From Candidatus Nanoarchaeia archaeon (GTDB lineage: Archaea > Nanobdellota > Nanobdellia > SCGC-AAA011-G17 > GW2011-AR18), in contig DATDVT010000045.1 in assembly GCA_035289905.1 (NCBI GenBank), forward strand, positions 132 through 64,131: a stretch of DNA of 64,000 nt, given 5' to 3'. The notes below the pieces were generated by a model. The model saw nothing but the letters and a program-made list of their open reading frames with translations. It did not search any database and was not told the origin of the DNA. Both the position numbers and the translations under genes were made by a program. Of the stretch, positions 14,473-34,404 are shown piece after piece. Numbering within the stretch: position 1 is the stretch's first letter; every line of letters starts with the position of its first letter.

Positions 14473-15380
14473 AAAGATTAGCAATTATTAAGTATACTAT
14501 TAGCATAATCATTTTAGGCTTACTTCTAGTTACAATTAAACCCTCAAAAATTTTAGCAGTATTAAATCTTATAAACTTAAAATTAATTTTAATTATAATA
14601 ATATTAGCTTTTGCATTAATTTTACTTACAACAATTAATTTAAAAATATTTATATCACCCTATATTAAAAAAATATCATTCATTGAATTTTTTAAAAAAT
14701 ATCTAGTAACTTGGTCTATTAGTTCATTCACACCTGGAAAAATAGGAGATTTCTCTCTTTCATATTTATTAAAAGATAAGATTTCCCCTGAAGAATCAAT
14801 AGCTGCATTAATTCTAGATAAATTAATTACTTTAATAGTACTCTCGGTAATAGGAATTATTGGAGTTTTCTACATTCTTCCGAAAGAATATGCATATTTA
14901 GTTACAATAAGTTTAATTTTTATAATAGGCTTAGTAGTATATTTTATTAATTCAAAAAAAATAAAAAATTACATTGCTAATAAGTTCTTTAAAAAATACA
15001 CTATTCAAATAGAAAACTTTGAAAAAACAATTAAAGAATATATTAGAAATCACAAAAAATTAATAATAATTAATGCGATAATAACTCTAATTATTTGGAC
15101 AACAAGCAGCTCAATAATTTATATTTCATTACATTTATTCAATCAAGAAATTCCATTCATAACAACAGTATTTATCACTTGTTTGGGTAACTTAAGTTTT
15201 CTAGTTCCAATAACCATTAATGGACTAGGCTTAAGAGAAGCGATAAATATCTTCTTTTTTGAGAAATATTTTATTCCAAAAGAGTTTACTCTTACAATAT
15301 TCTTACTAATTACTGTACTAAACTATCTATTTGCATTTATATTTATCCAACTTTTTATGACAGAAAAAACAATAAATTAA
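14469..15380 (+). CDS. UPF0104 / LPG-synthase-TM (flippase-like) family membrane protein
   Basis: 303 aa polytopic; signature INGLGLREA (GLGxRE motif of PF03706-type proteins). Confidence 0.55.
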   Translation: MKRLAIIKYTISIIILGLLLVTIKPSKILAVLNLINLKLILIIIILAFALILLTTINLKIFISPYIKKISFIEFFKKYLVTWSISSFTPGKIGDFSLSYLLKDKISPEESIAALILDKLITLIVLSVIGIIGVFYILPKEYAYLVTISLIFIIGLVVYFINSKKIKNYIANKFFKKYTIQIENFEKTIKEYIRNHKKLIIINAIITLIIWTTSSSIIYISLHLFNQEIPFITTVFITCLGNLSFLVPITINGLGLREAINIFFFEKYFIPKEFTLTIFLLITVLNYLFAFIFIQLFMTEKTIN

Positions 15381-16366
15381 TCTTTCTTCCAGTTATATTC
15401 ACCAAATTTTTTATTTAAATAATTTTTAGGAAAAACTCTTAAAATTTTATTCATCACAATATCTGCAGGTCTATGACAATTCAACCAACATAGATTACAA
15501 CTAATATGTTGCTTCCTAAGTTCAATTGCTTCTTTAGAGTTCCATACTTCTTCTAAAGTTTGATTGTATAAATTTCCAATTTTATTACCTAAACCTTGAC
15601 AAAATAAAACATCTCCTGCAGAAGTAATAATAACGTTACCTCTTGTACTTAAACAAGGTAGCTTCAACTTCCCCTTTTTCCATTTATAATAACTTTCTAA
15701 ATATGGATTATAATATTTATCCTTAACATAATAATAATCTTTTGGAACTTCCTGAGTATTAAAATAAGGAACAGTATCATAAAAACTGATCATACATAAA
15801 ACTCCTAATTGATCACACAAATTCATAACATATAAAAAATCTTCATTAGTATTATTATTACTTACAGTATAATGTAATTTGATTTTAGTAAATTTCTTAA
15901 GTTGTTCAACCACATTAACTATCTTACTAACATTATCAATACCCCTTATCCTCTTCTGTGTTTCTGGACGACCATCTAAAGAAATTGCTAAATTCTTAAC
16001 AAAATACTTTTTTACTGTTTCTATTAGTTTTTCATCTAAAATACAATTAGAAAATAAAGTATAGTTTAAACCTCGCTCATTAAATAATTCCAAAATTTTT
16101 TCAAAGTTAGGATGTAACAAAGGCTCTCCGCCAGTAATTCCAAAATTACATCCTTTAACTATATCCTGATCTAATACTTTTCTTATCAAATCAATACTTA
16201 GGTCATACTTAGGCATTTGATTCCAAATAAAACAAATACTACAATTAGAATTACATCTATTAGTAAGTATAAAAGTTACTTCATAAGGCTGATTTTTAAA
16301 AATTCTATAAGCTCTTTTCATATACGAAGATGCTAAATTCAAAGTACGATAATTTAAAAAATTCAT
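15377..16366 (-). CDS. radical SAM/SPASM-domain protein
   Basis: 329 aa; TNRCNSNCSIC; C-terminal CQGLG...CNLCWLNC. Confidence 0.7.
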   Translation of the reverse strand: MNFLNYRTLNLASSYMKRAYRIFKNQPYEVTFILTNRCNSNCSICFIWNQMPKYDLSIDLIRKVLDQDIVKGCNFGITGGEPLLHPNFEKILELFNERGLNYTLFSNCILDEKLIETVKKYFVKNLAISLDGRPETQKRIRGIDNVSKIVNVVEQLKKFTKIKLHYTVSNNNTNEDFLYVMNLCDQLGVLCMISFYDTVPYFNTQEVPKDYYYVKDKYYNPYLESYYKWKKGKLKLPCLSTRGNVIITSAGDVLFCQGLGNKIGNLYNQTLEEVWNSKEAIELRKQHISCNLCWLNCHRPADIVMNKILRVFPKNYLNKKFGEYNWKKD

Positions 16367-16416: not shown

Positions 16417-17847
16417 TCATAATCTTCGCATATCCATAACATTCATTTTTAAAAAAAAGTACATACCTTTTAAATACCTCTGTATATCCTCCCCGTTCTT
16501 TATTCTAGCAAGCTTTCGTTTAAAGAAACCTAATCTTAAATAACACCTCCGATATGCCTCTTTTTGTAGTTTTACAAGTTCTTCACGGCTATTATACCCT
16601 TTTGAAAGATATATTGGGAATAGACTAGTATAATGACTATAGTCAAAATCTACATTTCCTTCAGCAACAAAATCTTCATAAAGTTTCGTACCTGGATAAG
16701 GGGTAGTAAGTGTAAAAATAGGATAATCAACATCCAACTCAATCGCAAAATCAATAGTTTTTTTCCCCATTTCAGGAGTTTCTCCTGGCAAACCCAACAT
16801 AAAAGATCCTTTAACTTCTATTCCAGCTTCATGTGCCCAATGAACAGCATTTCTTATTTGGAACAAAGATTGACCCTTTTGAAGACTATTCAACAATTCC
16901 TGATTAGCAGACTCTATTCCATAAGAAATACCCCAACAGCCTACAGAAGCCATTTTTTTTAAAAGCTCGAGAGTTACAAAATTTACTTTCGCATAACATG
17001 TCCAAGTTAAGTCTAGATTTTCTGTATGAAGTGCATCACAAAAATTCAATATCCATTCTTTATCCAAAACAAATTCATCATCAAAAAAATAAATTTCTCT
17101 AACCCCATACTGCTTAATTAAATATTTTATTTCTTCAATAACTCTTGAAACAGAATTTCTCCTATAGGTGGTATGCATAAAACTAGACTCATTACAAAAT
17201 TTACACATCCGATAAGTGCATCCCCTACTTGTTATCATATTTATAGTGGGCAGTCTCTTATATTGATTTGGTACTGGAATATATTTATCTATATCAAAAA
17301 ATTTTCTTAATGGAATCGGTAATGTATCTAAATCCGTTATCATAATATCATTTTCAGTTTTTGTAACAACCTCTTTTTCTCTATAATAAATACCACGTAC
17401 CATAGAAATAGAAGTATTAGCTGTTATAGCATTAACAAGATTCAATAATTTATATTCCCCTTCTCCAAAAATAATATAATCAATCTCTTTTATGTCTTCA
17501 AGAATTTTTTCTGCAAAGATACTCGCATGTGAACCACCGCAAATAATAGGTATAGTAAAACTAGATTTCAACACCTTAGCTATAGTATACGCCTCTGGAG
17601 CTTGAGATGTAAGAATACTAATACAAACAATATCTGTTTTAAATTCTTTAACCTCATACAAAAGTTGTTCTTTTGTTAACGGAGTAATAAATAAATCTAT
17701 GACTTTACAGTTATACCCTCCATTCTCTAAAACTGTAGCTAAAGAGGCAATACCTAAAGGAGGAAAAAGACCAGCAATTCTTTTTCTCTTAATATTATCT
17801 ACTAAAAATCCATGCCCTGGTGTAGGATTAATAAATAAAATATTCAT
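16417..17847 (-). CDS. cobalamin-binding class B radical SAM protein (non-canonical Cx4Cx2C)
   Basis: 476 aa; N-term B12-like domain; SRGCTYRMCKFC. Confidence 0.8.
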   Translation of the reverse strand: MNILFINPTPGHGFLVDNIKRKRIAGLFPPLGIASLATVLENGGYNCKVIDLFITPLTKEQLLYEVKEFKTDIVCISILTSQAPEAYTIAKVLKSSFTIPIICGGSHASIFAEKILEDIKEIDYIIFGEGEYKLLNLVNAITANTSISMVRGIYYREKEVVTKTENDIMITDLDTLPIPLRKFFDIDKYIPVPNQYKRLPTINMITSRGCTYRMCKFCNESSFMHTTYRRNSVSRVIEEIKYLIKQYGVREIYFFDDEFVLDKEWILNFCDALHTENLDLTWTCYAKVNFVTLELLKKMASVGCWGISYGIESANQELLNSLQKGQSLFQIRNAVHWAHEAGIEVKGSFMLGLPGETPEMGKKTIDFAIELDVDYPIFTLTTPYPGTKLYEDFVAEGNVDFDYSHYTSLFPIYLSKGYNSREELVKLQKEAYRRCYLRLGFFKRKLARIKNGEDIQRYLKGMYFFLKMNVMDMRRL

Positions 17848-17872: not shown

Positions 17873-19567
17873 TTAAAGATTACTGGCCTCTAGATTTTTC
17901 AATTGATCCTCGGTAATATTATATAAAAAAATAGAGTTTCCAAAATTAACATCTGGTTCAAAATTATCCCTCAACCATTTAAAATTATCCCTATCCTTTT
18001 TATAAAACCCCTCTAAAGTATTCGCATCTAAAACTATAATTCCGCTTTGATGTATTCCTCCTTGCAATTCTTGATAACTAAAATTTAGATTTTTAAGATT
18101 AAAGTTATATACTGACAAATTTACCTTTGCATTTTGAATATTATTCTCATTCAAATAATCCACCATTCGATTAACATCTTGATTTAAATCACAATCAGGT
18201 CCTATAAAAAACTTGTGACTGCTTTCAGGTTCAATTACTTGATTAAAATAACAAACATAATCAGGATAAACAACTAAAGATTCTACAATAAATAAAAACA
18301 ATAACCCTAAAATTATCCACTTAAGGTATTTATTCAAAAAGAATCCAACTAAACCTCCAGCCAAAACAAACAATAAAGGTAAAATAGGCAAAAAATATAT
18401 AAATCCCCCATAAATACGACTAAAAATAAAAGAGAGAACATAAATTAAAGCAAAGATTAAAATAAAATAAACGTTCATTTTATTTTTTTTATCATACTTA
18501 ATTAAGAATAAAGAAAGAAAGAAAATTATTAAAAAAGAGATAGGGTTCTTAACTAAAAACACAAAGATGTACTGAAGAGATTTCAAACCACTAGAATAAC
18601 TCCCATTAAAATAAGAATTAAAACCTGTATCAAGATAATTATTAAAAGTATAAAAACTTTGTAAAAAATGGGGGGCTGGAACTGGAACTTCTGTCAAAAC
18701 AAAATAAATTTTATCTTTAAAAGGAATATCTCCTAAGATAAGATTTAATCGTTCAGGAGACCTAGCATAACCTGCATTTGTATAAATAGGATCATCAAGA
18801 TTATAAATTGGGTGAATCTCATTCAAATTTACAAAAATAAAAACAAAAAATCCAATTAAAGAAATCATAAATAGGATATAAATAACTTTTTTTAAAGGTA
18901 TATATTGTAAACGATTTTTATAATAAATAAATAAATTAAAAATAAAAAAAGAAAATAATAAAACAACAGAAGTTGGCTTAATTAATACTGCTAAACCAAA
19001 AAAAATACCTGATAAAACTAAATACTTTCTACAAGGCTTAAGATAATACTTCCAATAAAAATAAGCAGCAATAAAAAAGAAAGTAGCTAATAAAATATCA
19101 AAAGTCATAAGATCAGTATATGCTAAAATTGCAGGATGAAGAGTATATAGAATTAATGAAATAATTGCACCCTTAAATCCAAAGAGTTCTTTAGACCAAA
19201 TATAAACAAATAACCCTAGTAATGTTGCAAAAAAGAGTAAAACAATTCTTCCAGAAAAAACCATAGAGTTAGCATCATTAGCACCATAGTGCAAAAAAGT
19301 CTCTCTTCCAAAATCCTTGGGACTATTAAATTCATTATATTGAGGATAATCAATATCCATAAACAACAAAGGAAAAGATACTAATGCAAAAGAAAGAATT
19401 GGATGAATATTTGAATTGAAAGAATTCCCATATTTCAGATAAGAATAACCTAAAAACAAAAACTCTCCTTCATGATAGTATAAAGATCTTGTCTGAAGCG
19501 AAGGTAGAATCATATTTAAAAAAATTATCACAAAGATAAACAAAACAAAAAAGTCTTTTTTGTCCAT
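17873..19567 (-). CDS. polytopic membrane protein, GT-C-fold-like (ArnT/PMT-type) candidate glycosyltransferase
   Basis: 564 aa; about 11 predicted hydrophobic helices then soluble C-terminal domain; architecture like lipid-linked-sugar-dependent GT-C enzymes. Confidence 0.35.
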   Translation of the reverse strand: MDKKDFFVLFIFVIIFLNMILPSLQTRSLYYHEGEFLFLGYSYLKYGNSFNSNIHPILSFALVSFPLLFMDIDYPQYNEFNSPKDFGRETFLHYGANDANSMVFSGRIVLLFFATLLGLFVYIWSKELFGFKGAIISLILYTLHPAILAYTDLMTFDILLATFFFIAAYFYWKYYLKPCRKYLVLSGIFFGLAVLIKPTSVVLLFSFFIFNLFIYYKNRLQYIPLKKVIYILFMISLIGFFVFIFVNLNEIHPIYNLDDPIYTNAGYARSPERLNLILGDIPFKDKIYFVLTEVPVPAPHFLQSFYTFNNYLDTGFNSYFNGSYSSGLKSLQYIFVFLVKNPISFLIIFFLSLFLIKYDKKNKMNVYFILIFALIYVLSFIFSRIYGGFIYFLPILPLLFVLAGGLVGFFLNKYLKWIILGLLFLFIVESLVVYPDYVCYFNQVIEPESSHKFFIGPDCDLNQDVNRMVDYLNENNIQNAKVNLSVYNFNLKNLNFSYQELQGGIHQSGIIVLDANTLEGFYKKDRDNFKWLRDNFEPDVNFGNSIFLYNITEDQLKNLEASNL

Positions 19568-19598: not shown

Positions 19599-20672
19599 TT
19601 GCCTCACAAAAAAATGATTAAAACAGTATATAATTTGCTCTTTTCAAAGAAAGAACCGTTTAGCATAGTCCACTTTATAACGAATAAATGTAATGCCCAC
19701 TGCCTTCATTGTTTTCTAAATCTTGATAATCCAGAAATATATAAAGATGAATTAACCCTTGAAGAAATTAAAAAATTGAGTAAAACATTCGGCAACTCCT
19801 TATTTAATATTAATTTAACGGGTGGAGAACCATTTCTAAGAGAAGATATAAACGAAATAACAATAACTTACTTAAAAAATACAACTATTCAATCATTATT
19901 TATTAGCACAAATGGATATTTTACAGGAAAAATAAAAGAGTTAATAGATAGATTTTTACAAGAAAAAATAAATAAAAAATTAATATTTTCAATATCCATA
20001 GACAATTTTGAAGAAGAACATGATAATCTAAGAAAGGTAAAGGGATTATTCAAAAATGCAATACAAAGCTATAAACTAATAAATTCTTATAAAGATAAAA
20101 ACATAATTGCCAATATTGGAATCACAATCACAGATAAAAATTATAATAATGTAATTCCTTTATATAGCTATCTAAAAGAACAAGAAATAAAAGCAATAAC
20201 CACTACAATTATGCGAAAGGAGGGTAGAATTAAAAAAATAGAGAATAAAGAAGCAATTCTTGAATCTTACAAAAAATTATCAAAATTAATAAAAAAAGAT
20301 GCCGATGAAGGTTTTGGAAAAACATTACAAGGAAGGTTAATGAATGCAAAAAATATAATAGCTAATGATATAATAAAAGATATCTATCTAAATAATCAAT
20401 TTAAAGCACCATGCATTGCTGGTTCATTATTCGGAGTAATTTATGCAAATGGAGATATTTATCCTTGTGAAATTTTAAACAGAAACTCAGGTAATTTAAG
20501 AGAATACAACTTAAACTTCTTAGAATTATGGAAAGAAAAAAAGAATAAAGAACTTAAGAAATTTATAAAAACCAGCAAATGTTCCTGCACATATGAATGT
20601 ACATGGTCAATAAACATAATATCAAACCCAAAATTCATCCTGAAACTATTAATGGAATTAATAAAAAAGTAG
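19599..20672 (+). CDS. radical SAM/SPASM-domain protein
   Basis: 357 aa; TNKCNAHCLHC; C-term CIAGSLFGVIYANGDIYPCE...CSCTYEC. Confidence 0.7.
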   Translation: MPHKKMIKTVYNLLFSKKEPFSIVHFITNKCNAHCLHCFLNLDNPEIYKDELTLEEIKKLSKTFGNSLFNINLTGGEPFLREDINEITITYLKNTTIQSLFISTNGYFTGKIKELIDRFLQEKINKKLIFSISIDNFEEEHDNLRKVKGLFKNAIQSYKLINSYKDKNIIANIGITITDKNYNNVIPLYSYLKEQEIKAITTTIMRKEGRIKKIENKEAILESYKKLSKLIKKDADEGFGKTLQGRLMNAKNIIANDIIKDIYLNNQFKAPCIAGSLFGVIYANGDIYPCEILNRNSGNLREYNLNFLELWKEKKNKELKKFIKTSKCSCTYECTWSINIISNPKFILKLLMELIKK

Positions 20673-21661
20673 TAATAATAATTCCTTTCTCAATATTAAA
20701 TAAATTTGTTTTAGAATCTATAAGGGGTTGTTTAAATTTAAATTACCAAAATTATATCATAGTTTTAGGCCCAGACAAAGAAATCAACCTTCCTCAAGAA
20801 ATAAATAAAGAAAAAATAAAAATAGTTTCGACAGGAGATTTTACAATTGCAAAAAAAAGAAATATTTTAATCAATTCAGAAGAAGCGGATTATTATGCCT
20901 TTATTGATTCAGATGCATTTCCAAAAAAAGAATGGTTATCTTCAGGAATAAATAAATTTTCAGAAAAAATAGGCGCGATTGGTGGTCCGAATATTTGTCC
21001 ACCAAAAGAAAAAGTCAAAGAAAAAGCAGTAGGCAACTCATTAAAATCTTTTCTAGTTTCAGGAACTAAATCCTTTAGAAAGAAAATATCAAAAAGTCAT
21101 TATTGTACTGATTTACCCACTTGTAATCTAATTGTAAAAAAAGAAACTATTAAAAAATTAAATGGATTTAATGAAAAATTAATAACTGGAGAAGATATAG
21201 ACTTATGTAATAGAATAATTAAAAATAAAGAAAAGATTTATTTTAACAAAGAAACAATTGTTTTTCATCATAATCGCACATTATTCAAACCATATTTTTT
21301 TCAAAGAGTGACTTATGGTTTGTCTATATTCAGACTATTTAAAAAAGACCCCAGAATAAGTAACTTATACTACTTTACGCCTCTTCTCATGTTATTCTTC
21401 ATAATCTTTGGATTAATATTTAGTTTTATAAATACAACAATCAGAAATATTTGGTTATCTATTTTAATAATATATCTTATAATTAGTTTAATAGAAGCAG
21501 TTAGATATTCATCAAAAATATCTGAAATACCTCACACATTATTAGCATTGATTATAGGTAATCTAGCTCCAGGAATAGGTTCATTAATGATCTTATTGAA
21601 TATCAAAATTAATGTTAAAGAAATATACAAAAACTTTCAAAAGGAAGATAAACTTAAATAG
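20597..21661 (+). CDS. GT2 glycosyltransferase with C-terminal TM helices
   Basis: 354 aa; VVIIIPFS, DSDAFP (DxD), GGPN; paralogue of 29361-30323; overlaps upstream gene about 75 nt so true start uncertain. Confidence 0.65.
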   Translation: MYMVNKHNIKPKIHPETINGINKKVVIIIPFSILNKFVLESIRGCLNLNYQNYIIVLGPDKEINLPQEINKEKIKIVSTGDFTIAKKRNILINSEEADYYAFIDSDAFPKKEWLSSGINKFSEKIGAIGGPNICPPKEKVKEKAVGNSLKSFLVSGTKSFRKKISKSHYCTDLPTCNLIVKKETIKKLNGFNEKLITGEDIDLCNRIIKNKEKIYFNKETIVFHHNRTLFKPYFFQRVTYGLSIFRLFKKDPRISNLYYFTPLLMLFFIIFGLIFSFINTTIRNIWLSILIIYLIISLIEAVRYSSKISEIPHTLLALIIGNLAPGIGSLMILLNIKINVKEIYKNFQKEDKLK

Positions 21662-21681
21662 AAAAAATAAATCAAGAGAAC

Positions 21682-23091
21682 ATGAAAATTTGCATAATCT
21701 ATCTAAAATATTCAGAAGAAGCTCCGAAAAATCAACCCTCTGTAAAAGTAGTAGCTCAAAACTATGGAATTTATCCTTCGGTTACTTTGGGTTATGTAGC
21801 TGCAATAGCTGAAAAAGCAGGTCATAATGTTAAATTTATAGATGCGAATGCCCTTAATTTATCTAATCAAGATGTTATAAAAGAAATAAATTTATTTAAA
21901 CCAAATATTTTAGCTTTCACGATTACGACATATTTATTTCATCAAACAATTGAAGCAATCAGAGAAATTAAACAAAAAACAAACACACCTGTCTTAGTTG
22001 GAGGAGTACATGTAAGTCTTTATCCAAAAGAAACCTTAACTTATAAAGAAATAGATTATGCTCTTATAGGAGAAGCTGAAACATGCCTTCCTGAATTCTT
22101 AGAAGCATTAGAAAAAAATCAAGATTTCTCAAAGGTAAAATCTTTATGTTACAAAGAAAATAATGAAATAAAAATTAATGAATTATCTATTCAAGAAATG
22201 GATATAAATAAGGTTCTGTTTCCAGCTAGACATTTGTTTCCAAATGAAAAATATTACTCGTTTATTTCTCAAAGAAAAAATTTTACAGGAATGATAACTA
22301 GTAGAGGTTGCCCATTTAGATGTATATATTGTGAACAAGGAAGCAAAAAATTTAGATTTGCTGATGCTAAAAGAGTAGTTGAAGAATTCACTGAATGTTA
22401 TAATAACTATAAAATAAGAGAAATAGATATATTTGATTCTTCATTTACAGTTAAAAAAGATAGAGTATTAGACATCTGTAAAGAATTAATTTCGAATAAA
22501 ATAGATATCTCTTGGTCAATTCGTTCTAGAGTAGATTGTATAGATAAAGAAATGCTTAAAGAATTAAAGAAAGCAGGATGTATGAGGGTCTATTATGGAA
22601 TAGAATCTGGTGTCCCAAGAATTTTAGAAACTTTAAGAAAAGAAACAAATATTCAAAGAATAGAAGAAACTATAAAAGAAACTAAAATGGCTGGAATAAA
22701 TACCTTTGGCTACTTTATGCTAGGTTGTCCAGGAGATACTACTGAAACTATTAAAAAAACAATTGAATTTGCAAAAAAATTAAAATTAGATTATGCACAA
22801 TTCTCAAAAGTTAGTCCTCTACCAGGTACTGAATTATATGATAAACTACTTAAACCAAAATTAAAAGAAGATTATTGGTCTAAATATATTCTTAATAAGA
22901 ACTATGAATATAATCTACCAAGACCAGATTGTAATTTATCTGAAGAGGAGATACAAAAGTTAGTAGAAACAGCATATAAAGAATTCTACTTTCGTCCAAA
23001 ATACATAACAAAAGCAATACTGAGGATTAAATCATTCAATGAATTAAAAAGATCTACTAAAGCAGTATTTGAAATGTTAACTAAATTTTGA
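21682..23091 (+). CDS. cobalamin-binding class B radical SAM protein
   Basis: 469 aa; SRGCPFRCIYC. Confidence 0.8.
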   Translation: MKICIIYLKYSEEAPKNQPSVKVVAQNYGIYPSVTLGYVAAIAEKAGHNVKFIDANALNLSNQDVIKEINLFKPNILAFTITTYLFHQTIEAIREIKQKTNTPVLVGGVHVSLYPKETLTYKEIDYALIGEAETCLPEFLEALEKNQDFSKVKSLCYKENNEIKINELSIQEMDINKVLFPARHLFPNEKYYSFISQRKNFTGMITSRGCPFRCIYCEQGSKKFRFADAKRVVEEFTECYNNYKIREIDIFDSSFTVKKDRVLDICKELISNKIDISWSIRSRVDCIDKEMLKELKKAGCMRVYYGIESGVPRILETLRKETNIQRIEETIKETKMAGINTFGYFMLGCPGDTTETIKKTIEFAKKLKLDYAQFSKVSPLPGTELYDKLLKPKLKEDYWSKYILNKNYEYNLPRPDCNLSEEEIQKLVETAYKEFYFRPKYITKAILRIKSFNELKRSTKAVFEMLTKF

Positions 23092-24516
23092 TTTAAATAA
23101 AGCCCAACCTCCAACCAAATACACTTTAAATCTATCAAATGAATTAAGATTCTTTAACTGATTAAAAATAAACTTTCTTCTAAAATAAAAGCTTCGCATA
23201 GCATATTTTTGTAAATATTTTAAATCTTCTTGAGTTCTTCCTTCAGGAACATAAACTAAATCCTTATTAGACCATCCAGCCCAAGTTTGATAATCTTCCC
23301 ATTTATAAGAGATTAAAGAAGGATCAGATTTTGACAATTCAAACAACTTTGTTCCAGGATAAGGAACTGTTATTGTGAATTGTACCCAATCAGGATTTAA
23401 CTCTTTAGAGAATTCAATAGTCTTTAAACTTTCTTCTCTAGTTTCAGTAGGCAAGCCCAACATAAAAAATGCTTTAATTTCAATACCTACTTCTTTTGTC
23501 CATATAAATGCATTCTTAATCTGTTCAATTGTTATGCTTTTATCAATTAAATCTAATAATCTTTGATTACCACTTTCTACACCATAATGAATACTCCAAC
23601 AACCTGCTTCTTTCATTGTTTTTAATAGTTCTAAATCTACTAAATTAACTCTAGTCATACAGCTCCATTCCATTCTTTTATTAAGCCCGTCTTCTTTTAT
23701 TTTTTTACATAAATCAAAAACAAAAGATCTATTTATAGTAAAGGTATCATCTCTAAAAATAATATCTTTAGCTCCATATTCATCTAAAAGAATCTTAATT
23801 TCATTGATCACCCTTTCAATAGAATGGGCCCTATATTTAGTACCTGAGATTTTAGAACAAAAAGCACATCTAAATGGACAACCCCTAGAAGCCAAGATTA
23901 AATAACTTGGTAATTTTTTAAAATATGTAGGTGCTGGTCTATATTTTTCCATAGGCAATAAATCCCGAGCAGGATATGGTATTTCATCTAAATTTTGAAT
24001 AAATTCTTGTTTAGGATTTATTATTATTCTTTCGTCTTTTCTAAAAACTAATCCTTTAATTTCTGATAAATCTAAATTATTTTCTAAATAATTTAAAAGA
24101 TTAACAAAAGAAATTTCAGCCTCACCATATAAAAGAAAATTAGCCTCTGGACAATCCTTTAAACAGGAAGTAAAAAATACTGTTGGATGAGGACCACCAA
24201 TAACAATTTTAACTTGTTCATTCAAGGTTTTTCTAACAATCTTCATTGTTTCTTTAGTTCTTAAATACATAGGAGTCAACATTGAAATACCGACTAAATC
24301 AGGCTTAAAATCATTTAAATAATTAATCAAATCTTCTTGAGAATAATTTAACGCAGCCATATCTAAGATTTTAATAATATCTTCTTTTCTTTTTTCTCTA
24401 ACTACTGCGGCCAAATACGCTAGACCCATAGGTTCACATACTGGACCAACCCTGCCTAAAGAGGTGCCATATCTATCACTTACAGATAAACATGGTTGTA
24501 TTAATAAAATTTTCAT
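23077..24516 (-). CDS. cobalamin-binding class B radical SAM protein
   Basis: 479 aa; SRGCPFRCAFC; paralogue of 16417 and 37951 genes. Confidence 0.8.
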   Translation of the reverse strand: MKILLIQPCLSVSDRYGTSLGRVGPVCEPMGLAYLAAVVREKRKEDIIKILDMAALNYSQEDLINYLNDFKPDLVGISMLTPMYLRTKETMKIVRKTLNEQVKIVIGGPHPTVFFTSCLKDCPEANFLLYGEAEISFVNLLNYLENNLDLSEIKGLVFRKDERIIINPKQEFIQNLDEIPYPARDLLPMEKYRPAPTYFKKLPSYLILASRGCPFRCAFCSKISGTKYRAHSIERVINEIKILLDEYGAKDIIFRDDTFTINRSFVFDLCKKIKEDGLNKRMEWSCMTRVNLVDLELLKTMKEAGCWSIHYGVESGNQRLLDLIDKSITIEQIKNAFIWTKEVGIEIKAFFMLGLPTETREESLKTIEFSKELNPDWVQFTITVPYPGTKLFELSKSDPSLISYKWEDYQTWAGWSNKDLVYVPEGRTQEDLKYLQKYAMRSFYFRRKFIFNQLKNLNSFDRFKVYLVGGWALFKSKFS

Positions 24517-25398
24517 CTAAAATCTCCTCATATCAGCTAAAAATCCAAACAAAATTACCTGAACTCCAATAAGTATCAATAAAACTGCCAAAATAGTCAA
24601 AGGAATATGCCCAACAACATCATATTTTAAAAAAGAATAAACTAAATAAAATCCGATTAATGAACCAATAGAAAAAAAGAACAATCCTATTCTCCCAAAA
24701 AATTTCATAGGATCAAAATCCCTATAAATTCTAAATATATTAATCCAAGCTCTGAAGGCATATGTAAAGGAATTTTTAAATAATCTGCTTTCTCTAGTTT
24801 TATTTGTTTTTATTGGAATCTCAGCTATTCGCATATTATTTTTTCCAGCCCTAATTAATTGCTCTTGTGTATAAGTAAAATTATTAATCAAGGGTAACTT
24901 AGCTACCTCTCTCGTAAAAGCTCTAAATCCAGTCGTTGTATCTGTAATCTTAATACCTAGAATGTTAGAGAACACTTTTGCAAAAGCAATATTTCCCCAT
25001 CGCTTCATAAAAGAACCCTCATAAACTCCATGTTCAAATCTAGAACCTAAAACTAAATCATAACCCTCTTCAATTTTTTTTAGTAATTTTAAAATGTCCG
25101 CGGCTTTATATTGACCATCTGCATCTGTATGCACTATAATATCAGCCCTAAGCTCTAAACATTTTTTCATCTCAAATTTAAATGTCTCTGCTAACCCTTT
25201 TCTTCTATCATGCGAAAAAACAATAGCACCTATTTCTCTAGCTATTTTCGCAGTATTATCCTCACTTCCATCATTCACAACTAAAATACTATAGTCATAA
25301 GAACCCATAATTTCTTTTATCTCCTTAATCACTTCACCTAATGTTTTTTCTTCATTATACGCTGGAATACTAATAATTACTTTCACAATTAAAACCAA
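24517..25398 (-). CDS. GT2 dolichyl/polyprenyl-phosphate sugar synthase-like (DPM1/GtrB/AglD-J-like) with C-terminal TM
   Basis: 293 aa; ISIPAYNEE, VVNDGSEDNT, HTDADGQ; C-terminal hydrophobic helices; abuts rSAM gene with 0-nt gap. Confidence 0.7.
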   Translation of the reverse strand: MVLIVKVIISIPAYNEEKTLGEVIKEIKEIMGSYDYSILVVNDGSEDNTAKIAREIGAIVFSHDRRKGLAETFKFEMKKCLELRADIIVHTDADGQYKAADILKLLKKIEEGYDLVLGSRFEHGVYEGSFMKRWGNIAFAKVFSNILGIKITDTTTGFRAFTREVAKLPLINNFTYTQEQLIRAGKNNMRIAEIPIKTNKTRESRLFKNSFTYAFRAWINIFRIYRDFDPMKFFGRIGLFFFSIGSLIGFYLVYSFLKYDVVGHIPLTILAVLLILIGVQVILFGFLADMRRF

Positions 25399-25487: not shown

Positions 25488-27095
25488 ATGATAAAAAAAA
25501 TAAATATAATCTTCATACTATTAATCATAACAAAAATGATACTATCATTTAGTGTACTGCCTGTTTTAGGTTTTGCAGATTCTTTAAACTATATTAACGA
25601 AGCTAAAGCATTTCATGACACAAATAGCCTTTCAGAAGTCGCTAAAGCAGGAATTTATCCTCCAATCTATTCAATCATTATCTCTCCTGCTTTCATATTT
25701 AAAGATATGGAGAAAGTGCATTTCTCAATTAAAGTAATTAATGCTATTATATCCTCATCAATTATATTCCCTATCTTCTTCCTAGCGAATAGATTTTTCA
25801 GCAAAAAAAAAAGTCTAATTATAGCAACAATAACAGCATTAGTACCCCCTATATTCGCAGTTAGTTCGTATACAATGAGTGAAAACATATTTTTTCCACT
25901 TTTCATAACTACTCTCTATATAATCTATCTAACAATTAAAGAAAAACAACAAAAACTCTATATTCTTTCTGGGATACTAATTGGATTATGTTACTTGACA
26001 AGAGCTATATCTATATTTCTAATTCTAGTTATCATTATTATATTTTTATTAAACAAAACTAAAATAAAGAATATAATCACTTCAATATCAGCAAGTTTAA
26101 TAACAATTTTACCATGGATATATACCAAAATAAAAATTTATGGATTCAGCCTACAAGGAATTCTAGGGAATAATTATTCATCCTTTGCAATACAATCTCA
26201 ATCTAATATAATACAAAAATTAATATGGGTTATATTCTACACTGATTACTTAATTTTATCAACTGGAATAATATTCTTTATTCTCACAATTTCGTTAATA
26301 TCTAACTATAAAAACATAAATACAAAAATACTCTTCCAACTGACATTGCTTTCTACCATTTTTTCAATAATTTTAGCAAGCAACTTAAGTGGAGCATATC
26401 CCAATTATGAAGAAGGAAGGCTTATTGGTCGATACATAGAACCAATAATTCCAATGTTTATCTTACTTGGATTTATTTCTCTTAAAAAAAGTAAAAAAAT
26501 TACAATATTTACTTTAATCTTTCTAAATGCAATCACTCCATTAATCCTATTTAACAAATTTTTCCCAGTTAACAATATGTCATTAGTCTCTCTTGGTACC
26601 CTAGCATATCTATCAAATTCAACAATTCTTATTGCAATTATAATTATAGTTACAACTATTTTAATTTTAAAAATTAAAGAATATAACTTCAAAAAAATTG
26701 CATATTTCTTTATAATTTACTTCATAATAATAAGTTTATTAAACTCGACAGTAATAATTTATGACTCCAAATTTAAATGGGAAGCAGAAGAGGGTATAGA
26801 ATTAGGAATTTGGATAAATGATAACTTACCCAAAAATAATAAAATTCTAATTGATAAAGATGAACCAAATAAATTTACAGATAAAACTGAAGAAAAAATA
26901 ACAGATTTAGAAAAAAGATCGATTCATACCTTAGAATATTGGATTAGATTTAAATATAAAATTGGTCCAATAGAAAAGTATCCATATTATGAATATATTA
27001 TTACCAAAAAAGACCTTCCTTTAAAAATAATTAAAGAAGGAAAAGAAGGAACTAAAATATATTATAATATAGAGTATTCATACAATAAATATTAA
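25488..27095 (+). CDS. polytopic membrane protein (GT-C-like candidate)
   Basis: 535 aa; >10 hydrophobic segments + C-terminal soluble domain. Confidence 0.35.
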   Translation: MIKKINIIFILLIITKMILSFSVLPVLGFADSLNYINEAKAFHDTNSLSEVAKAGIYPPIYSIIISPAFIFKDMEKVHFSIKVINAIISSSIIFPIFFLANRFFSKKKSLIIATITALVPPIFAVSSYTMSENIFFPLFITTLYIIYLTIKEKQQKLYILSGILIGLCYLTRAISIFLILVIIIIFLLNKTKIKNIITSISASLITILPWIYTKIKIYGFSLQGILGNNYSSFAIQSQSNIIQKLIWVIFYTDYLILSTGIIFFILTISLISNYKNINTKILFQLTLLSTIFSIILASNLSGAYPNYEEGRLIGRYIEPIIPMFILLGFISLKKSKKITIFTLIFLNAITPLILFNKFFPVNNMSLVSLGTLAYLSNSTILIAIIIIVTTILILKIKEYNFKKIAYFFIIYFIIISLLNSTVIIYDSKFKWEAEEGIELGIWINDNLPKNNKILIDKDEPNKFTDKTEEKITDLEKRSIHTLEYWIRFKYKIGPIEKYPYYEYIITKKDLPLKIIKEGKEGTKIYYNIEYSYNKY

Positions 27096-27139: not shown

Positions 27140-28660
27140 ATGAATCTAAATCTCATAAAAGAAAAAACAAAACTTTGGTTAAATAAAAAAGAAAATATTC
27201 TTTTATTAATAATAATCGTTTTAGCATTCTTAATCAGATTAAAATATATGACTATAAACTCTGCGGTTTGGTGGGATGAAGCAGACTATCTTTCAGCAGC
27301 AAAAAGATGGGGGGGATTAAGTTATTTAAATGATATCTGGTATTATAGAAGAACTCCCTTATTACCTTTGTTTTGGGCAGGACTATATAAACTGGGTGCA
27401 ACTGAAATAACACTAAGATTTACAGAAGTTATATTCTCAACATTATTTGTATTTGGAATTTATTTACTGGCAAAAGAAATATTCAATAATAAATACGTAG
27501 GTCTTATTGCTGCTTCGTGTGCAATATTCAATAGAATCCATTTATTTTTAACGACTAGACTTATGAATGAAGTACCAGCTACGCCATTTTTAGTCTTTGG
27601 ATTATATTTTTTCTGGAAAGGTTATATAAAAGAAGAAAAAGCAAAATATATGTACCTTGCAACATTCATGCTATCAATTTCAATTATGACAAGAATGGCT
27701 ACTTCTTTAGTTCTTGTACCTATAGGGGTCTATGTTTTATCAAAAGAAAGATTAAACATCATAAAAAACAAAAAAGTGTGGATTTGTTTACTGATGATTC
27801 TTTTAACAATGACTCCTTTTATCTATCTTCACTACAAACATATTGGAGGATTAACTAATTTTATAAAACATTATACCATAACTGAAGATAGTACAGAAAT
27901 TGTAATCCCATCAATCTATCTTGGTTATAAAGGGATTTCTATTTATTTTATGTCTTATTTGCAAAATTTAGGAATTATTTTCTTTATAATTTTCATAATA
28001 GCAATTGGTTACTATTTTTATCCTTTAATCTTAGCCCCAGATTTACTAATTAAAAAAGAAAACAATGAGATCAAAGAAAAACTTCTAGTGGCTTTAATAA
28101 TTTTAGTTCCATTAATTTATCATGGTATCTTTAGTGAATATTTAGAAGAAAGATATCTTCTGTGGTCTTATCCTATAGTTTATGCATTAATAGCATGGAT
28201 CCTATTCAAAATATATACTCCTTTAACAAAATACGGAAAAAATATTGCAATAACTCTCATAATTGTTATTATAATAACTAACAGCTATCTTGTATATCAG
28301 AGTACTGAAGAAATTATAAATTATAAAAAAGATAGTTATTACGAAGAGAGACAAGCTGCAGAATTTGTAAAAAGTATTTCAACAAAAGAAGACTTAATCT
28401 ACACAAATCCAGTTCCCAAGATAGTATATTATTCAGAAAGAAAAACATTAAATTTTAATAGCGCGGGTAGTGCAGAAAATATTAAAGAATCAGCTAAAAA
28501 AAATAATGCTAAATACTTAATATTCTCTCTTATAGAACAATCAAGCCCATGGGCTAAAGAAATGATAACTTATCCTCCTGAATGGTTAAAACTAATTAAA
28601 GTCTTTCCTTCAGAACAAAATCCTGTAGTTTTCGTATTTGAGATACAAAAAGATGTCTAA
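27140..28660 (+). CDS. GT-C-fold membrane glycosyltransferase, ArnT/PMT-like (GT39/83-like)
   Basis: 506 aa; first extracytoplasmic loop WWDEADYLSAAKRW (DE/DxD-type loop motif of GT-C enzymes); polytopic. Confidence 0.5.
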   Translation: MNLNLIKEKTKLWLNKKENILLLIIIVLAFLIRLKYMTINSAVWWDEADYLSAAKRWGGLSYLNDIWYYRRTPLLPLFWAGLYKLGATEITLRFTEVIFSTLFVFGIYLLAKEIFNNKYVGLIAASCAIFNRIHLFLTTRLMNEVPATPFLVFGLYFFWKGYIKEEKAKYMYLATFMLSISIMTRMATSLVLVPIGVYVLSKERLNIIKNKKVWICLLMILLTMTPFIYLHYKHIGGLTNFIKHYTITEDSTEIVIPSIYLGYKGISIYFMSYLQNLGIIFFIIFIIAIGYYFYPLILAPDLLIKKENNEIKEKLLVALIILVPLIYHGIFSEYLEERYLLWSYPIVYALIAWILFKIYTPLTKYGKNIAITLIIVIIITNSYLVYQSTEEIINYKKDSYYEERQAAEFVKSISTKEDLIYTNPVPKIVYYSERKTLNFNSAGSAENIKESAKKNNAKYLIFSLIEQSSPWAKEMITYPPEWLKLIKVFPSEQNPVVFVFEIQKDV

Positions 28661-29405
28661 AATATCTTTAATAGTTCCTGCACATAATGAAGAAAAAAGA
28701 ATTGAAGACACAATAATAAATTTTCAAAAGCTACTTAGCGAATATAAAGATTATGAAATAATCTTCGTTTGCAATAATTGTACTGATTCTACTATTGATT
28801 TAATAAAACAACATAAAGAAAAAAACAATAAAATAAAAATTTTAGAATACTCTGGAATAAAGGGTAAGGGTTATGCTGTAGTCTCTGGTCTAAAAAAAGC
28901 AGATGGAGATATTCTTGGATTCTTAGATGCGGATGACGCCTTTGAACATAAATACATCCATAAGATAATCTCAAAATTTGAAAATGAGCATTATGATTGT
29001 GTAATTGCATCTAAATGGAAAAATCAAGGATTTAAAGATGTAAATGAATCATTTCAAAGAAAATTACTTGCTATAGGATGGAATTTGCTCTCAAAAGTAC
29101 TTCTTGACTTAAATTATACAGATACCCAAGCTGGAGCTAAATTCTTAAGAAAAAAGGCATTTAATAAAATCAATAAAAATTTTACTTGTAATGGGTTTGA
29201 TTTTGATGTAGAACTTTTATTTAAACTAAAACAAGCTAATCAAAAAATAACTGAAATATTTGTGCCTACAAAAGAGAGAAGATTCTCAACATTTCATTAC
29301 AAATATGTTCCTGGAATGGCTTGGAGAATAATAAAGTTATTTACTAAAAGAATAAATAAACTACCATATTTGACTATAAAGAGTAGAATGTCTACTTCTA
29401 AATAA
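28638..29405 (+). CDS. GT2 glycosyltransferase (DPM1-like, soluble)
   Basis: 255 aa; ISLIVPAHNEE, GFLDADDAF. Confidence 0.7.
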   Translation: MRYKKMSKISLIVPAHNEEKRIEDTIINFQKLLSEYKDYEIIFVCNNCTDSTIDLIKQHKEKNNKIKILEYSGIKGKGYAVVSGLKKADGDILGFLDADDAFEHKYIHKIISKFENEHYDCVIASKWKNQGFKDVNESFQRKLLAIGWNLLSKVLLDLNYTDTQAGAKFLRKKAFNKINKNFTCNGFDFDVELLFKLKQANQKITEIFVPTKERRFSTFHYKYVPGMAWRIIKLFTKRINKLPYLTIKSRMSTSK

Positions 29406-30323
29406 ACCATACAAAAATCCAAAGCCATAACTAAAATGCGTTAGAATCAAACCAAAAAAGATACATAGACTTCTTTCTATTTTAAAAAGTAAAGAACTAA
29501 ATAAAACAATAAATAAATAAAGTAATAAGAATGATACATAAATTAATCTAAACCATTCAAAAAAAATACTGATTATAAAACCAAAAAAAACAAATAAAAC
29601 AAATAAACTTAATATTCCATAATATATTTTTTCAAAAGAAAATTGTTCTTTTAATAACCAAGCAATATCTCTCCCATATATCCACATTTGTTTAGCGTGA
29701 TCTATAAATAACTCTCTTCTATGATGAAAAACAATAATATTTGGAAAATACCAAACCTCTTTACCTAAATTAAGAATATCAAAACATAATTTTGAATCCT
29801 CAGCAGTTAGTAAAGTAGTATCAAAACCTTTAACAAAGTTAAATAATTCTTTTCTAATGAATAAATTACATGTGGGTAACTCCCAAACCCTTTTAGGTTT
29901 TTTTCCAATTTGATACCTTATACTGCTAGTACCAGTTAACCAACTAGTTAATACATCACCCCCACATTTACTCCAATAGTTATCTTCTTTCGGAGTTAAA
30001 TTAGGACCACCTACAATACCAATTTTTTTATTTTCAAATGCAATTAAGGCCTTTTCTATCCAATCGGTTCTAGGATAAGCATCATCATCTATAAAGGCTA
30101 AAATTTCGCCTTTAGCTAGTTTTACCCCTAAATTTCTCTTTTCTGCTGGCCTTATTTTCCCTGTAGGAACTATTTTATAATCTTTAAAATGTATTTTTTT
30201 ATTAAAATCTGGCAAGATAATAGTTTCAAAACTTCGATTATTTAATCTAGAAATAGAATCTAAACATCTCTCTAAACCCCTTCCTATCTCCATACAAGGA
30301 ATTATTATAGAAACCTTAACCAT
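29361..30323 (-). CDS. GT2 glycosyltransferase with C-terminal TM region
   Basis: 320 aa; VSIIIPC, DDDAYP, GGPNL. Confidence 0.7.
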   Translation of the reverse strand: MVKVSIIIPCMEIGRGLERCLDSISRLNNRSFETIILPDFNKKIHFKDYKIVPTGKIRPAEKRNLGVKLAKGEILAFIDDDAYPRTDWIEKALIAFENKKIGIVGGPNLTPKEDNYWSKCGGDVLTSWLTGTSSIRYQIGKKPKRVWELPTCNLFIRKELFNFVKGFDTTLLTAEDSKLCFDILNLGKEVWYFPNIIVFHHRRELFIDHAKQMWIYGRDIAWLLKEQFSFEKIYYGILSLFVLFVFFGFIISIFFEWFRLIYVSFLLLYLFIVLFSSLLFKIERSLCIFFGLILTHFSYGFGFLYGLFRSRHSTLYSQIW

Positions 30324-30370: not shown

Positions 30371-30607
30371 TTATATATTCAAAACCCCATAAGAAGCCCT
30401 TAAAAAAACAATACCATAGTCCTTAGTACCTTGATTATCTGTAATCTTACAATCCTTTAAAACAATGTTCATATAAACGTCAAAAGACTCTAAAATTCCT
30501 GTATAATTTTTACCATTAATCAAATCAATACTTATCTTTTTACCCCTCAATTTCATCAAATCCATTAGTGGTTTACTCATTTGAATTGTATTAATTTCTT
30601 CTTCCAT
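30371..30607 (-). CDS. Sm-like (LSm/SmAP) protein
   Basis: 78 aa; Sm1/Sm2-like pattern GKNYTGILESFDVYMNIVLKD...GIVFLRASYGVLNI. Confidence 0.55.
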   Translation of the reverse strand: MEEEINTIQMSKPLMDLMKLRGKKISIDLINGKNYTGILESFDVYMNIVLKDCKITDNQGTKDYGIVFLRASYGVLNI

Positions 30608-32497: not shown

Positions 32498-32552
32498 AAA
32501 ATAAACTTATCTCAATAATTTATAAATATTTCATATTATATAATCTATATCT

Positions 32553-32849
32553 TCAACAAAAGCTTTCTAATTCCTTTAATTTATCAATATAATTCCCAGA
32601 AACATCAACCCAAACCTCAGACTCGCTTATATGCATAATTACCTCATCACAAAACTTAATATCAATAACCTTCTCATTTTCATACAAATCTTCTAAAAAA
32701 TCAACTAAATCCTTAACCTCAACCTCTTTTTCACCCAAATCATATTTAACAACTATCTTATTAAAATTTAAAGTATTTATTATTTCATCTAAAACCTCAA
32801 TATAATCAAAATAAGACTCAACAACAAATCTCTTTTCCATTAATTCCAT
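32553..32849 (-). CDS. hypothetical acidic protein
   Basis: 98 aa; ORF only. Confidence 0.3.
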   Translation of the reverse strand: MELMEKRFVVESYFDYIEVLDEIINTLNFNKIVVKYDLGEKEVEVKDLVDFLEDLYENEKVIDIKFCDEVIMHISESEVWVDVSGNYIDKLKELESFC

Positions 32850-32864
32850 AAGAACTTAAAATAT

Positions 32865-33902: not shown

Positions 33903-34065
33903 AGTTTTTAAAGATAGAACAATAATTTAAACCTTATTTTTTTGCTTAAATCTAATAATTTCTTAATGCCAATATTAAATATATAATTTTAATAAGTATA
34001 ATGGTTATTAATTACAACATTAAACTTTCTCGATAAAAGACATACTTTTTTCTTGGTTTTTTAAA

Positions 34066-34353: not shown

Positions 34354-34404
34354 AAAAAAATAACTTATATAAAAAGCTTATTCATTAATTAAAAAATATA
34401 TTTT

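Follow-up and report, generated by a model that had tools for sequence, protein, structure and literature searches.

A Recurrent Pair of a B12-Domain Radical SAM Enzyme and a Polyprenyl-Phosphate Sugar Synthase-Type Glycosyltransferase: A Candidate Module for Radical Tailoring of Lipid-Linked Sugars

Introduction

Lipid-linked monosaccharide donors, such as dolichyl-phosphate mannose (Dol-P-Man) and undecaprenyl-phosphate 4-amino-4-deoxy-arabinose (Und-P-Ara4N), have a central role in surface glycosylation throughout the domains of life. They are used by three-component systems, among them GtrA/GtrB/GtrC, CsbB/GtcA/YfhO, ArnC/ArnD/ArnEF/ArnT, and the archaeal AglD/AglR/AglS, in which a family 2 glycosyltransferase (GT2) of the GtrB/ArnC/DPM1 type forms a polyprenyl-phosphate (polyprenyl-P) monosaccharide, a flippase translocates it, and an external GT-C glycosyltransferase uses it. 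As ArnD shows, modification of the lipid-linked sugar can precede flipping; to our knowledge, the only tailoring that such donors undergo is deformylation, deacetylation, or epimerization. This analysis concerns a 64,000-nucleotide stretch of contig DATDVT010000045.1 (the window, to which all coordinates refer) from a Candidatus Nanoarchaeia archaeon, in which genes for radical S-adenosylmethionine (SAM) enzymes (rSAMs) with a B12-type domain directly adjoin GT2 genes. The most widely conserved of these pairs, GT2 24517–25398 with rSAM 23077–24516 (pair 1), may belong to a module that adds a radical step to the three-component scheme.

Comparison with Described Systems

The gene set around pair 1 resembles the three-component systems in encoding a GtrB/ArnC/DPM1-type GT2, a flippase candidate, and a GT-C together. 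PMT_2-type GT-Cs are found in the window at 25488, 27140, and 17873, and in the same operon as the GT2 in two other loci (L055 and L056). In contrast to those systems, no GtrA-family flippase was seen among the neighbors of the module: none of the scanned window proteins matches PF04138, nor does this family figure in the list of the 25 families that neighbors match most often. A protein of the LPG_synthase_TM family stands in its place. The InterPro family named after lysyl-phosphatidylglycerol synthase and AglD holds LPG_synthase_TM and HpnL, the latter being uncharacterized (10.1101/2025.07.29.667474). The module further differs in adding a B12-domain rSAM and a class I SAM-dependent methyltransferase.

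By analogy, the nearest described system in parts and logic appears to be hpnI/hpnK/hpnJ with hpnL. In hopanoid biosynthesis, the glycosyltransferase HpnI places N-acetylglucosamine on the lipid, HpnK deacetylates it, and the B12-type rSAM HpnJ is proposed to contract the sugar ring (PMC13459092). The window likewise holds a glycosyltransferase, an HpnJ-like rSAM, an HpnL-like membrane protein, and a deacetylase. However, the scores fall far under the equivalog cut-offs (137–249 bits against 577.6 for HpnJ; 37–42 bits against 195.65 for HpnL), the module GT2 is GtrB/AglJ-like, and the window deacetylase belongs to PF01522 (NodB fold). Membership in HpnJ, AglJ, and HpnL was rejected, all matches lying below the curated cut-offs. 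In addition, the hosts of the module include DPANN and Candidate Phyla Radiation (CPR) lineages, and the loci showed no hopanoid genes, for which no targeted search was made.

In the archaeon Sulfolobus, the rSAM calditol synthase (Cds) remodels a hexose that is bound to a lipid (PMC13459092). Compared by description rather than by sequence, Cds differs in its substrate, which is a glycerol dialkyl glycerol tetraether (GDGT) glycolipid and not a polyprenyl-P-sugar. AprD4, the radical SAM 1,2-diol dehydratase of apramycin biosynthesis, is a sugar-modifying rSAM and the best full-length fold match of rSAM 23077, with a similar N-terminal domain. However, AprD4 binds no cobalamin, and its substrate is a soluble aminoglycoside pseudodisaccharide (PMC12931638). 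Class B rSAMs are known to C-methylate sugars, with GenK, GenD1, and Fom3 as examples (PMC12931638, PMC5819394). These share with the window enzymes an N-terminal B12-type Rossmann domain joined to an rSAM core, but no close sequence relation was found, and their substrates are soluble antibiotic intermediates rather than carriers of cell-surface glycans. In a literature search outside which most subscription-journal papers fell, no prior description was found of an rSAM in a GtrB/GT-C system, of an rSAM in DPANN glycosylation, or of a class B rSAM in surface polysaccharide synthesis.

A Conserved GT2–rSAM Pair

The original prediction had described three places where a B12-domain rSAM abuts a DPM1-like GT2 as one cassette repeated three times. 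The three abutments are indeed present at the coordinates given, each on a single strand, with gaps of 0, 1, and 20 nt and with Pfam domains that agree. However, they are not equivalent: pair 2 is conserved only among closer relatives and pair 3 in none of the three orthologues sampled, and the idea of a single repeated cassette was abandoned. The DPM1-like assignment holds for GT2 24517 and in weakened form for the transmembrane (TM)-less GT2 37238, and fails for the MftF-like GT2 20597. The prediction had also overlooked the class I methyltransferase that is the most frequent third partner, the aglB context, a fourth abutment, and an eighth B12-domain rSAM.

GT2 24517 (24517–25398, minus strand; PF00535, 91 bits) carries a DADGQ motif. 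In public contigs the protein has 289 amino acids (aa), which matches the GTG at 25386, the probable start. It matches AglJ (TIGR04182) at 165.6 bits, below the cut-off of 325, and the NCBIfam models for Dol-P-hexose transferase, PpgS, PgfS, and ArnC. Alignments to PDB entries extend over most or all of its length and include the dolichyl-phosphate mannose synthase of Pyrococcus furiosus (5mlz), ArnC (9hwj), and GtrB (5eke). A simple hydropathy scan places a C-terminal TM hairpin at residues 235–253 and 269–287. By these features, GT2 24517 is a bona fide enzyme of the polyprenyl-phosphate sugar synthase type. The rSAM of the pair (23077–24516, minus strand) is HpnJ/BchE-like, with PF02310 at 72 bits, PF04055 at 90 bits, and HpnJ at 217 bits. 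The rSAM ATG comes immediately after the GT2 stop codon TAG, and an AGGAG lies inside the GT2 gene 8 nt upstream of that ATG, a junction that is consistent with translational coupling.

Within the window, permutation of gene order gives a modest, suggestive enrichment: four rSAM–GT2 adjacencies (three on the same strand) stand against 1.3–1.7 expected (P = 0.02–0.07, with seven B12-domain rSAMs in the test and the eighth, 53405, labeled “other”). It is other genomes that provide the main support. More than 5,000 proteins match rSAM 23077 at E ≤ 1e-20, and a genome scan yielded 80 loci (L010–L089). The scan query was an alignment of rSAM 23077 with close homologues, which replaced an alignment of seven paralogues that was too little conserved. 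Archaeal hosts of the 80 loci are DPANN, Altiarchaeota, Methanosarcinales, Helarchaeota, and Thermoplasmata; bacterial hosts are Desulfobacterales, other Deltaproteobacteria, Saccharibacteria/Patescibacteria, Planctomycetia, Scalindua, Nitrospiraceae, WOR-3, Magnetococcales, Hyphomicrobiales, and others.

Neighbors were counted around 43 clear orthologues of rSAM 23077 whose contigs extend 3 kb or more to either side, genes within 150 nt being scored as abutting. Hosts of this set include Woesearchaeota/Nanoarchaeia, Altiarchaeota, Desulfobacterales, Saccharibacteria, Planctomycetia, Nitrospiraceae, Magnetococcales, and Hyphomicrobiales. Labels were assigned from our own open reading frame (ORF) calls and from hidden Markov models (HMMs) seeded with window proteins. 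A GtrB-like GT2 lies within 3 kb of 33 of the 43 orthologues and abuts 17 (15 on the same strand, in either order). Thus, pair 1 stays together in related genomes across Archaea and Bacteria, the point on which the original prediction had staked itself beforehand. A class I methyltransferase is found within 3 kb of 20 orthologues (11 abutting), an LPG_synthase_TM protein near at least 11 (6 abutting), and a GT-C near at least 10 (3 abutting). The last two counts are lower bounds, since a Pfam rescan revealed that the seeded HMMs under-call both families; Pfam matches of unlabeled neighbors add eight LPG_synthase_TM and three PMT_2 proteins, for totals of about 19 and about 13 of 43, the two neighbor counts having used slightly different limits (2.5 and 3 kb). 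The GT-C adjoins the pair itself in loci L010, L012, L016, and L056.

The association falls off with distance. Of the ORFs within 1 kb of the rSAM, 16.3% are GtrB-like GT2s, against 1.5% at 6–10 kb; over the same range, the methyltransferase share declines from 12.8% to 3.4%, that of LPG_synthase_TM from 5.1% to 1.1%, and that of GT-C from 5.1% to 0. In neighborhoods and distance decay alike, the GT-C thus co-occurs with the pair, as had been proposed, and flippase-like genes do so as well. The partner enzymes are of a similar kind: among 45 GT2s scanned (42 partners and three from the window), 43 match AglJ, 39 PpgS, 35 Dol-P-hexose transferase, and 30 ArnC, and a simple hydropathy scan finds a C-terminal TM hairpin in 30.

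The most compact arrangement is found on a 5.2-Mb contig of Desulfobacterales (L056, 7213–13166), where GT-C, GT2, rSAM, methyltransferase, and LPG_synthase_TM, in this order, form a one-strand operon that is followed by a DDE transposase. L055 carries a similar operon. In a bacterial subclade, a class I methyltransferase (residues ~520–690) is fused to the C terminus of the rSAM (residues 1–475). These proteins of ~700 aa occur in Deltaproteobacteria/Desulfobacteraceae (P0098, P0101, P0103, P0105, P0110–P0114, and P0120; loci L028, L030, and L032). Across 72 loci, three orthologues carry the fusion, two of them in the 43-locus set.

Proposed Module

Pair 1, and less strictly pair 2, are read here as parts of a conserved, uncharacterized three-component glycosylation module with radical tailoring of the lipid-linked sugar, a reading that we regard as evenly poised between right and wrong. 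Beyond the domain identities, gene order, neighborhood conservation, and rSAM–methyltransferase fusion described above, we infer a step order, a substrate stage, a reaction type, the use of cobalamin, and a final acceptor. The GtrB/ArnC/AglJ/DPM1-type GT2 would place one sugar on polyprenyl (dolichyl) phosphate at the cytoplasmic face, where the HpnJ/BchE-like B12-domain rSAM would next alter the polyprenyl-P-sugar by radical chemistry. The class I methyltransferase may often also act on the lipid-linked sugar. The LPG_synthase_TM-family protein would flip the product, and the PMT_2-type GT-C would hand it to a surface glycan. In this DPANN genome, the parts are duplicated and scattered over a ~54-kb agl island, whose eight paralogous B12-domain rSAMs would give rise to several differently modified sugars. 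Action of the rSAM on the polyprenyl-P-sugar is favored because of the logic of hpnI/hpnK/hpnJ/hpnL and the flippase-like matches of the LPG_synthase_TM proteins of the window. As to the reaction, C-methylation appears the most likely by analogy, being ranked first by its frequency in the class; the alternatives are an AprD4-type dehydration, suggested by the best fold match, and an HpnJ-type rearrangement, suggested by the best family match.

Several observations weigh against this reading. For 10 of the 43 orthologues, the 3 kb to either side lack a GT2 of this type, and only ~30% of the loci have a GT-C close by. Co-divergence of the partners, a check named in the original prediction, is weak: for 42 pairs, the rSAM and GT2 distance matrices give a Mantel Spearman rho of 0.22 (permutation P = 2e-4). 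Partner identities are non-monotonic, as in four DPANN loci the GT2s are 65–67% identical to GT2 24517 and the rSAMs only 43–46% identical, while bacterial partner GT2s are only 21–38% identical to the archaeal one. Strict rSAM–GT2 co-phylogeny was therefore rejected; the pattern points to an association at the level of families, with partners exchanged over time. In pair 3, the sequence of GT2 20597 indicates an enzyme of another type that is not DPM1-like, and orthologues of its rSAM (21682) have no GT2 as an immediate neighbor in three of three sampled loci, one of which has a GT2 ~4 kb away. The hydropathy scan predicts no membrane segment in the rSAMs. Both “B12” and “methylase” are unproven as descriptions, because the closest solved fold, AprD4, binds no cobalamin. 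Finally, the gene order fits an rSAM acting before the GT2 as well as after it, and every member of the module is read from its gene.

A bolder version of the proposal is possible and is put forward tentatively. It envisions a domain-spanning four- or five-component system in which a cobalamin-type rSAM, often with a fused or adjacent methyltransferase, would rewrite the carbon skeleton of the polyprenyl-P-monosaccharide before it is flipped, by C-methylation, deoxygenation, or an HpnJ/Cds-like ring contraction to a carbocycle. The outcome would be non-canonical, hydrolysis-resistant surface sugars or head groups in DPANN, CPR, and sulfate reducers, and the eight paralogues would amount to a combinatorial “radical glycan” code in B12 scavengers.

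More generally, the pair that recurs across Archaea and Bacteria probably makes chemically unusual surface sugars. If the proposed module is correct, a conserved rSAM step would add C–H functionalization to the lipid-linked donor stage, and one large uncharacterized clade of HpnJ/BchE-like class B rSAMs would gain a role. It would also offer a reason why genome-reduced DPANN and CPR symbionts retain many costly Fe–S/B12 enzymes in their surface-glycan loci. For experiments, the compact operon of Desulfobacterales (L056) offers a direct way in.

Alternative Explanations

The alternative that survives best reverses the order of the same pathway: rSAMs and methyltransferases would tailor nucleotide-activated sugars in the cytoplasm, and the GT2 would then load the modified sugar onto the lipid. 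The island encodes SDR dehydratases/epimerases, three DegT aminotransferases, and hexapeptide acyltransferases, all of which would suit such a route, as would the lack of a membrane segment in the rSAMs and the soluble sugar or nucleotide substrates of AprD4, the closest fold, and the related OxsB. However, enzymes of this kind are rare beside the orthologues, where 109 unlabeled neighbor proteins include only four Epimerase/GDP_Man_Dehyd and two NTP_transferase matches, and no nucleotide-sugar-modifying gene lies within the L056 operon. Moreover, HpnJ, which belongs with HpnI/K/L to the nearest named system, works on a lipid-anchored sugar (PMC13459092). On balance, this order is rather unlikely.

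Action of the rSAMs late in the pathway, on the oligosaccharide of the N-glycan linked to dolichyl phosphate or pyrophosphate, is unlikely. The GT2s would in that case be ordinary elongating or initiating enzymes, and the pairing a matter of operon packing. The methyltransferase AglP of Haloferax is a precedent for late action. The position of the island beside aglB, with an AglH-type PF00953 enzyme, two Wzx flippases, three GT4s, and five GT2s, agrees with it; further rSAM paralogues have a GT4, a Wzx, or a GT-C as their direct neighbor and not a GT2, the in-window adjacency reaches a P of only 0.02–0.07, and pair 3 is not conserved. It is opposed by the retention of pair 1 outside large glycan islands, in compact operons that have neither an initiating transferase nor a Wzx, and by the distance profiles, since the GT4 share is flat around the rSAM whereas that of the GtrB-like GT2 decays.

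Modification of the lipid part (dolichol/polyprenol or membrane lipid chains) instead of the sugar has precedents in HpnP/HpnR and in the archaeal GDGT-modifying rSAMs. Below-cut-off NCBIfam matches to HpnR and to the ladderane-type TIGR04072, both lipid-modifying class B families, and the many lipid-directed rSAMs covered in reviews (PMC13459092) lend it some color. Yet the conserved partners (GT2, methyltransferase, flippase-like protein, and GT-C) are all head-group or glycan enzymes, and no isoprenoid-synthesis gene is found among the 25 families most often matched by neighbors, so that this explanation is very unlikely. Coincidental adjacency with no functional coupling is barely credible: although many rSAMs and GT2s share one island, the permutation P is modest, and coincidence is probably right for pair 3, it is already contradicted for pair 1 by the cross-phylum conservation, the 0-nt junction with its internal Shine–Dalgarno-like AGGAG, and the distance decay.

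Pairs 2 and 3

Pair 2 consists of rSAM 35851–37236 (plus strand; PF02310 and PF04055) and a short soluble GT2 of 238 aa at 37238–37954 (plus strand; PF00535, 80 bits) with a DID motif. The rSAM stop TAA is separated from the GT2 ATG by a single A. The GT2 is weakly similar to PgfS, ArnC, AglJ, and Dol-P-hexose transferase, the same families as GT2 24517. It has no TM segment; the haloarchaeal Dol-P-hexose transferase model covers only 213 positions, so TM-less forms are known. Its 3′ end takes part in the fourth abutment, a convergent 4-nt overlap with rSAM 37951–39351, whose start in turn overlaps the stop of methyltransferase 39348 (ATGA). These two protein types are the ones that are joined, rSAM first, in the fused bacterial orthologues of rSAM 23077.

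Among orthologues of rSAM 35851, P0122 (62% identity) is followed after 1 nt by a GT2 and then by a methyltransferase and an LPG_synthase_TM protein. A short GT2 overlaps P0139 (48%) by 4 nt, and another is convergent with P0136 (48%), with PMT_2 beyond it. P0131 (45%) has a GT2 two genes upstream, and P0145 of Omnitrophota (44%) has none. A true orthologue of GT2 37238 (66% identity) is found only in the closest relative, as the partner of P0122, the other partners being 27–33% identical; this orthologue holds the same position in L109. A candidate hidden GT2 beside a pair 2 orthologue in Omnitrophota (L111, 6449–7156) was rejected, as it has no similarity. A metagenome scan with rSAM 35851 returned only distant relatives (22–29% identity), the loci of which were not used. 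By sequence comparison, pair 2 is conserved only among closer relatives and represents a looser instance of the module.

Pair 3 joins GT2 20597–21661 (plus strand) to rSAM 21682–23091 (plus strand) on the same strand with a gap of 20 nt. The rSAM is convergent with rSAM 23077–24516. The GT2 is of a Glyco_trans_2_3/MftF-like type, with weak PF13632 and PF00535 matches and MftF as its best NCBIfam family (91 bits, below the cut-off); AglJ, Dol-P-hexose transferase, PpgS, and ArnC give no match. Three or four C-terminal TM segments are predicted, and the protein is 33% identical to GT2 29361–30323. It can start only at the ATG at 20597 or 20603, there being no canonical start beyond codon 3. An overlap of 70–76 nt with the upstream SPASM-type rSAM at 19614–20672 (plus strand; PF04055 and PF13186, with the start taken from a public gene call) must therefore be accepted. 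Public contigs carry no gene call at this position, and the gene could have an unusual overlap or a non-canonical start, or could be decaying. The orthogroup of rSAM 21682 is large and includes Bacteria and Archaea. In the three loci sampled, the genes around it encode a methyltransferase, an amine oxidase, PMT_2, an asparagine-synthase-like enzyme, other rSAMs, and a PTPS_related protein. Pair 3 is probably a product of island packing.

B12-Domain rSAM Paralogues

Eight B12-domain rSAMs are encoded in the window, more than had been listed originally. In all eight, PF02310 (33.9–83.6 bits, above the cut-off of 32.1) is joined to a PF04055 core. Besides the members of the three pairs, they are found at 6519–7892 (plus strand), overlapping the end of GT4 5386–6522 by 4 nt; at 16417–17847 (minus strand), between GT-C 17873 and the SPASM rSAM at 15377; at 37951–39351 (minus strand; HpnJ, 249 bits); at 43556–45013 (minus strand), a divergent member downstream of Wzx 44976–46232 with a 38-nt overlap; and at 53405–54865 (plus strand; PF02310, 67.7 bits; PF04055, 91.3 bits). 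Pairwise identity among the first seven is 25–49%, with 16417 and 37951 sharing 49%, and 37951 and 23077 sharing 41%; the eighth (53405) is 26–34% identical to those.

The best NCBIfam matches are partial ones to HpnJ and BchE, and no equivalog cut-off is reached by any of the eight. HpnJ (TIGR03471, cut-off 577.6) matches seven of the rSAMs at 137–249 bits over most or all of their length and 53405 at 146 bits, the best families of the latter being BchE and HpnJ. AprD4 reaches 121 bits against a cut-off of 500. As the original prediction required, the rSAMs retain the cluster cysteines, the GxESG region, and the PF02310 domain. The cysteines C213, C217, and C220 (rSAM 23077 numbering) are invariant in seven aligned paralogues, an alignment to which 53405 does not belong, and in 12 homologues, as is the GxESG region. 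The spacing is CX3CX2C in four of the seven and CX4CX2C in 37951, 16417, and 43556. C270, C286, and C306 are also invariant within the alignment of the rSAM 23077 orthogroup.

The AlphaFold2 model of rSAM 23077 is confident (pLDDT 88.3, pTM 0.89). Foldseek ranks AprD4 first (PDB 6fd2; E = 2e-27, TM-score 0.72–0.77 over the full length, 22% identity), followed by TsrM, the methyl-coenzyme M reductase glutamine methylase QCMT (9ccb), OxsB, CysS, and TokK. The architecture is that of class B rSAMs, from which cobalamin binding and methyl transfer are inferred.

In some glycan-type loci of CPR, DPANN, Omnitrophota, and Asgard genomes (L111, L112, L116, L038, and L086), three to five B12-domain rSAM genes follow directly one after another. 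Amidotransferases of the asparagine-synthase/glutamine amidotransferase type are repeated rSAM neighbors (L009, L109, L113, and L115), which suggests amidated sugars in the same glycans.

The Glycan Island

The sequence of the window (G+C ~27%) is also present on a JGI metagenome contig (3300002105 C687J26635_10000067). From ~5.4 to 59.2 kb, it forms one ~54-kb glycan-biosynthesis island of the agl N-glycosylation type beside aglB. This assignment follows from the AglB/STT3 oligosaccharyltransferase at 56594–59233 (minus strand; PF02516, 63.7 bits) and from the eighth B12-domain rSAM, the second class I methyltransferase, and the second Wzx flippase, which likewise lie to the right of the region first described. 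The island also holds an AglH/WecA-type initiating transferase (46233–47228; PF00953) and two Wzx-type flippases (44976–46232, and 54862–56388 on the minus strand). The three GT4s include the one at 5386–6522, and five GT2s are present.

Three clear PMT_2 GT-Cs are located at 17873–19567 (minus strand; PF13231, 44.8 bits), at 25488–27095 (plus strand, divergent from pair 1; PF13231, 48 bits; ~10 predicted TM segments), and at 27140–28660 (plus strand; PF13231, 62.6 bits; PF02366, 35.4 bits). A weaker, probably GT-C-like polytopic membrane protein of the PTPS_related type (40308–41825, minus strand; ~10 TM segments) matches PF10131 at 18.5 bits, below the cut-off. A 501-aa protein at the equivalent position of L109 also matches PF10131, its likeness to the 40308 ORF being positional only.

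Two LPG_synthase_TM proteins exceed the 43.2-bit cut-off of the “flippase-like” family TIGR00374: 41860–42795 (minus strand; PF03706, 153 bits; TIGR00374, 121 bits), with a weak HpnL match of 37 bits, and 14469–15380 (plus strand; PF03706, 121.5 bits; TIGR00374, 66 bits), with a below-cut-off HpnL match of 42 bits. Class I methyltransferases are encoded at 39348–40217 (minus strand; PF13489 and PF08241) and at 52570–53331 (minus strand). The NodB-fold polysaccharide deacetylase at 42847–43572 (plus strand; PF01522, 70 bits) has NCBIfam matches that all lie below the cut-offs, including a very weak one to ArnD.

The island contains eleven radical SAM genes, namely the eight B12-domain rSAMs and three SPASM-type rSAMs (12238–13254, 15377–16366, and 19614–20672), the last three matching no NCBIfam equivalog. 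An SPASM rSAM beside a B12-domain rSAM recurs in other DPANN loci (L012, L013, and L112). An Rfam scan gave no hit, whether to a cobalamin riboswitch or to another RNA.

The two rSAM-rich halves of the island are parted by a block on the minus strand (31292–35676) that encodes a DUF362 protein (31292–32497), a type I phosphodiesterase/metalloenzyme (32865–33902), and a 423-aa protein that neither Pfam nor NCBIfam matches (34405–35676). A gene for a 78-aa LSM/Sm-like protein (30371–30607, minus strand; from a public gene call) lies mid-island between GT2 29361–30323 and a 155-aa ORF with no family match, and an IS240-type DDE transposase (2638–3546, plus strand) is found near the left edge.

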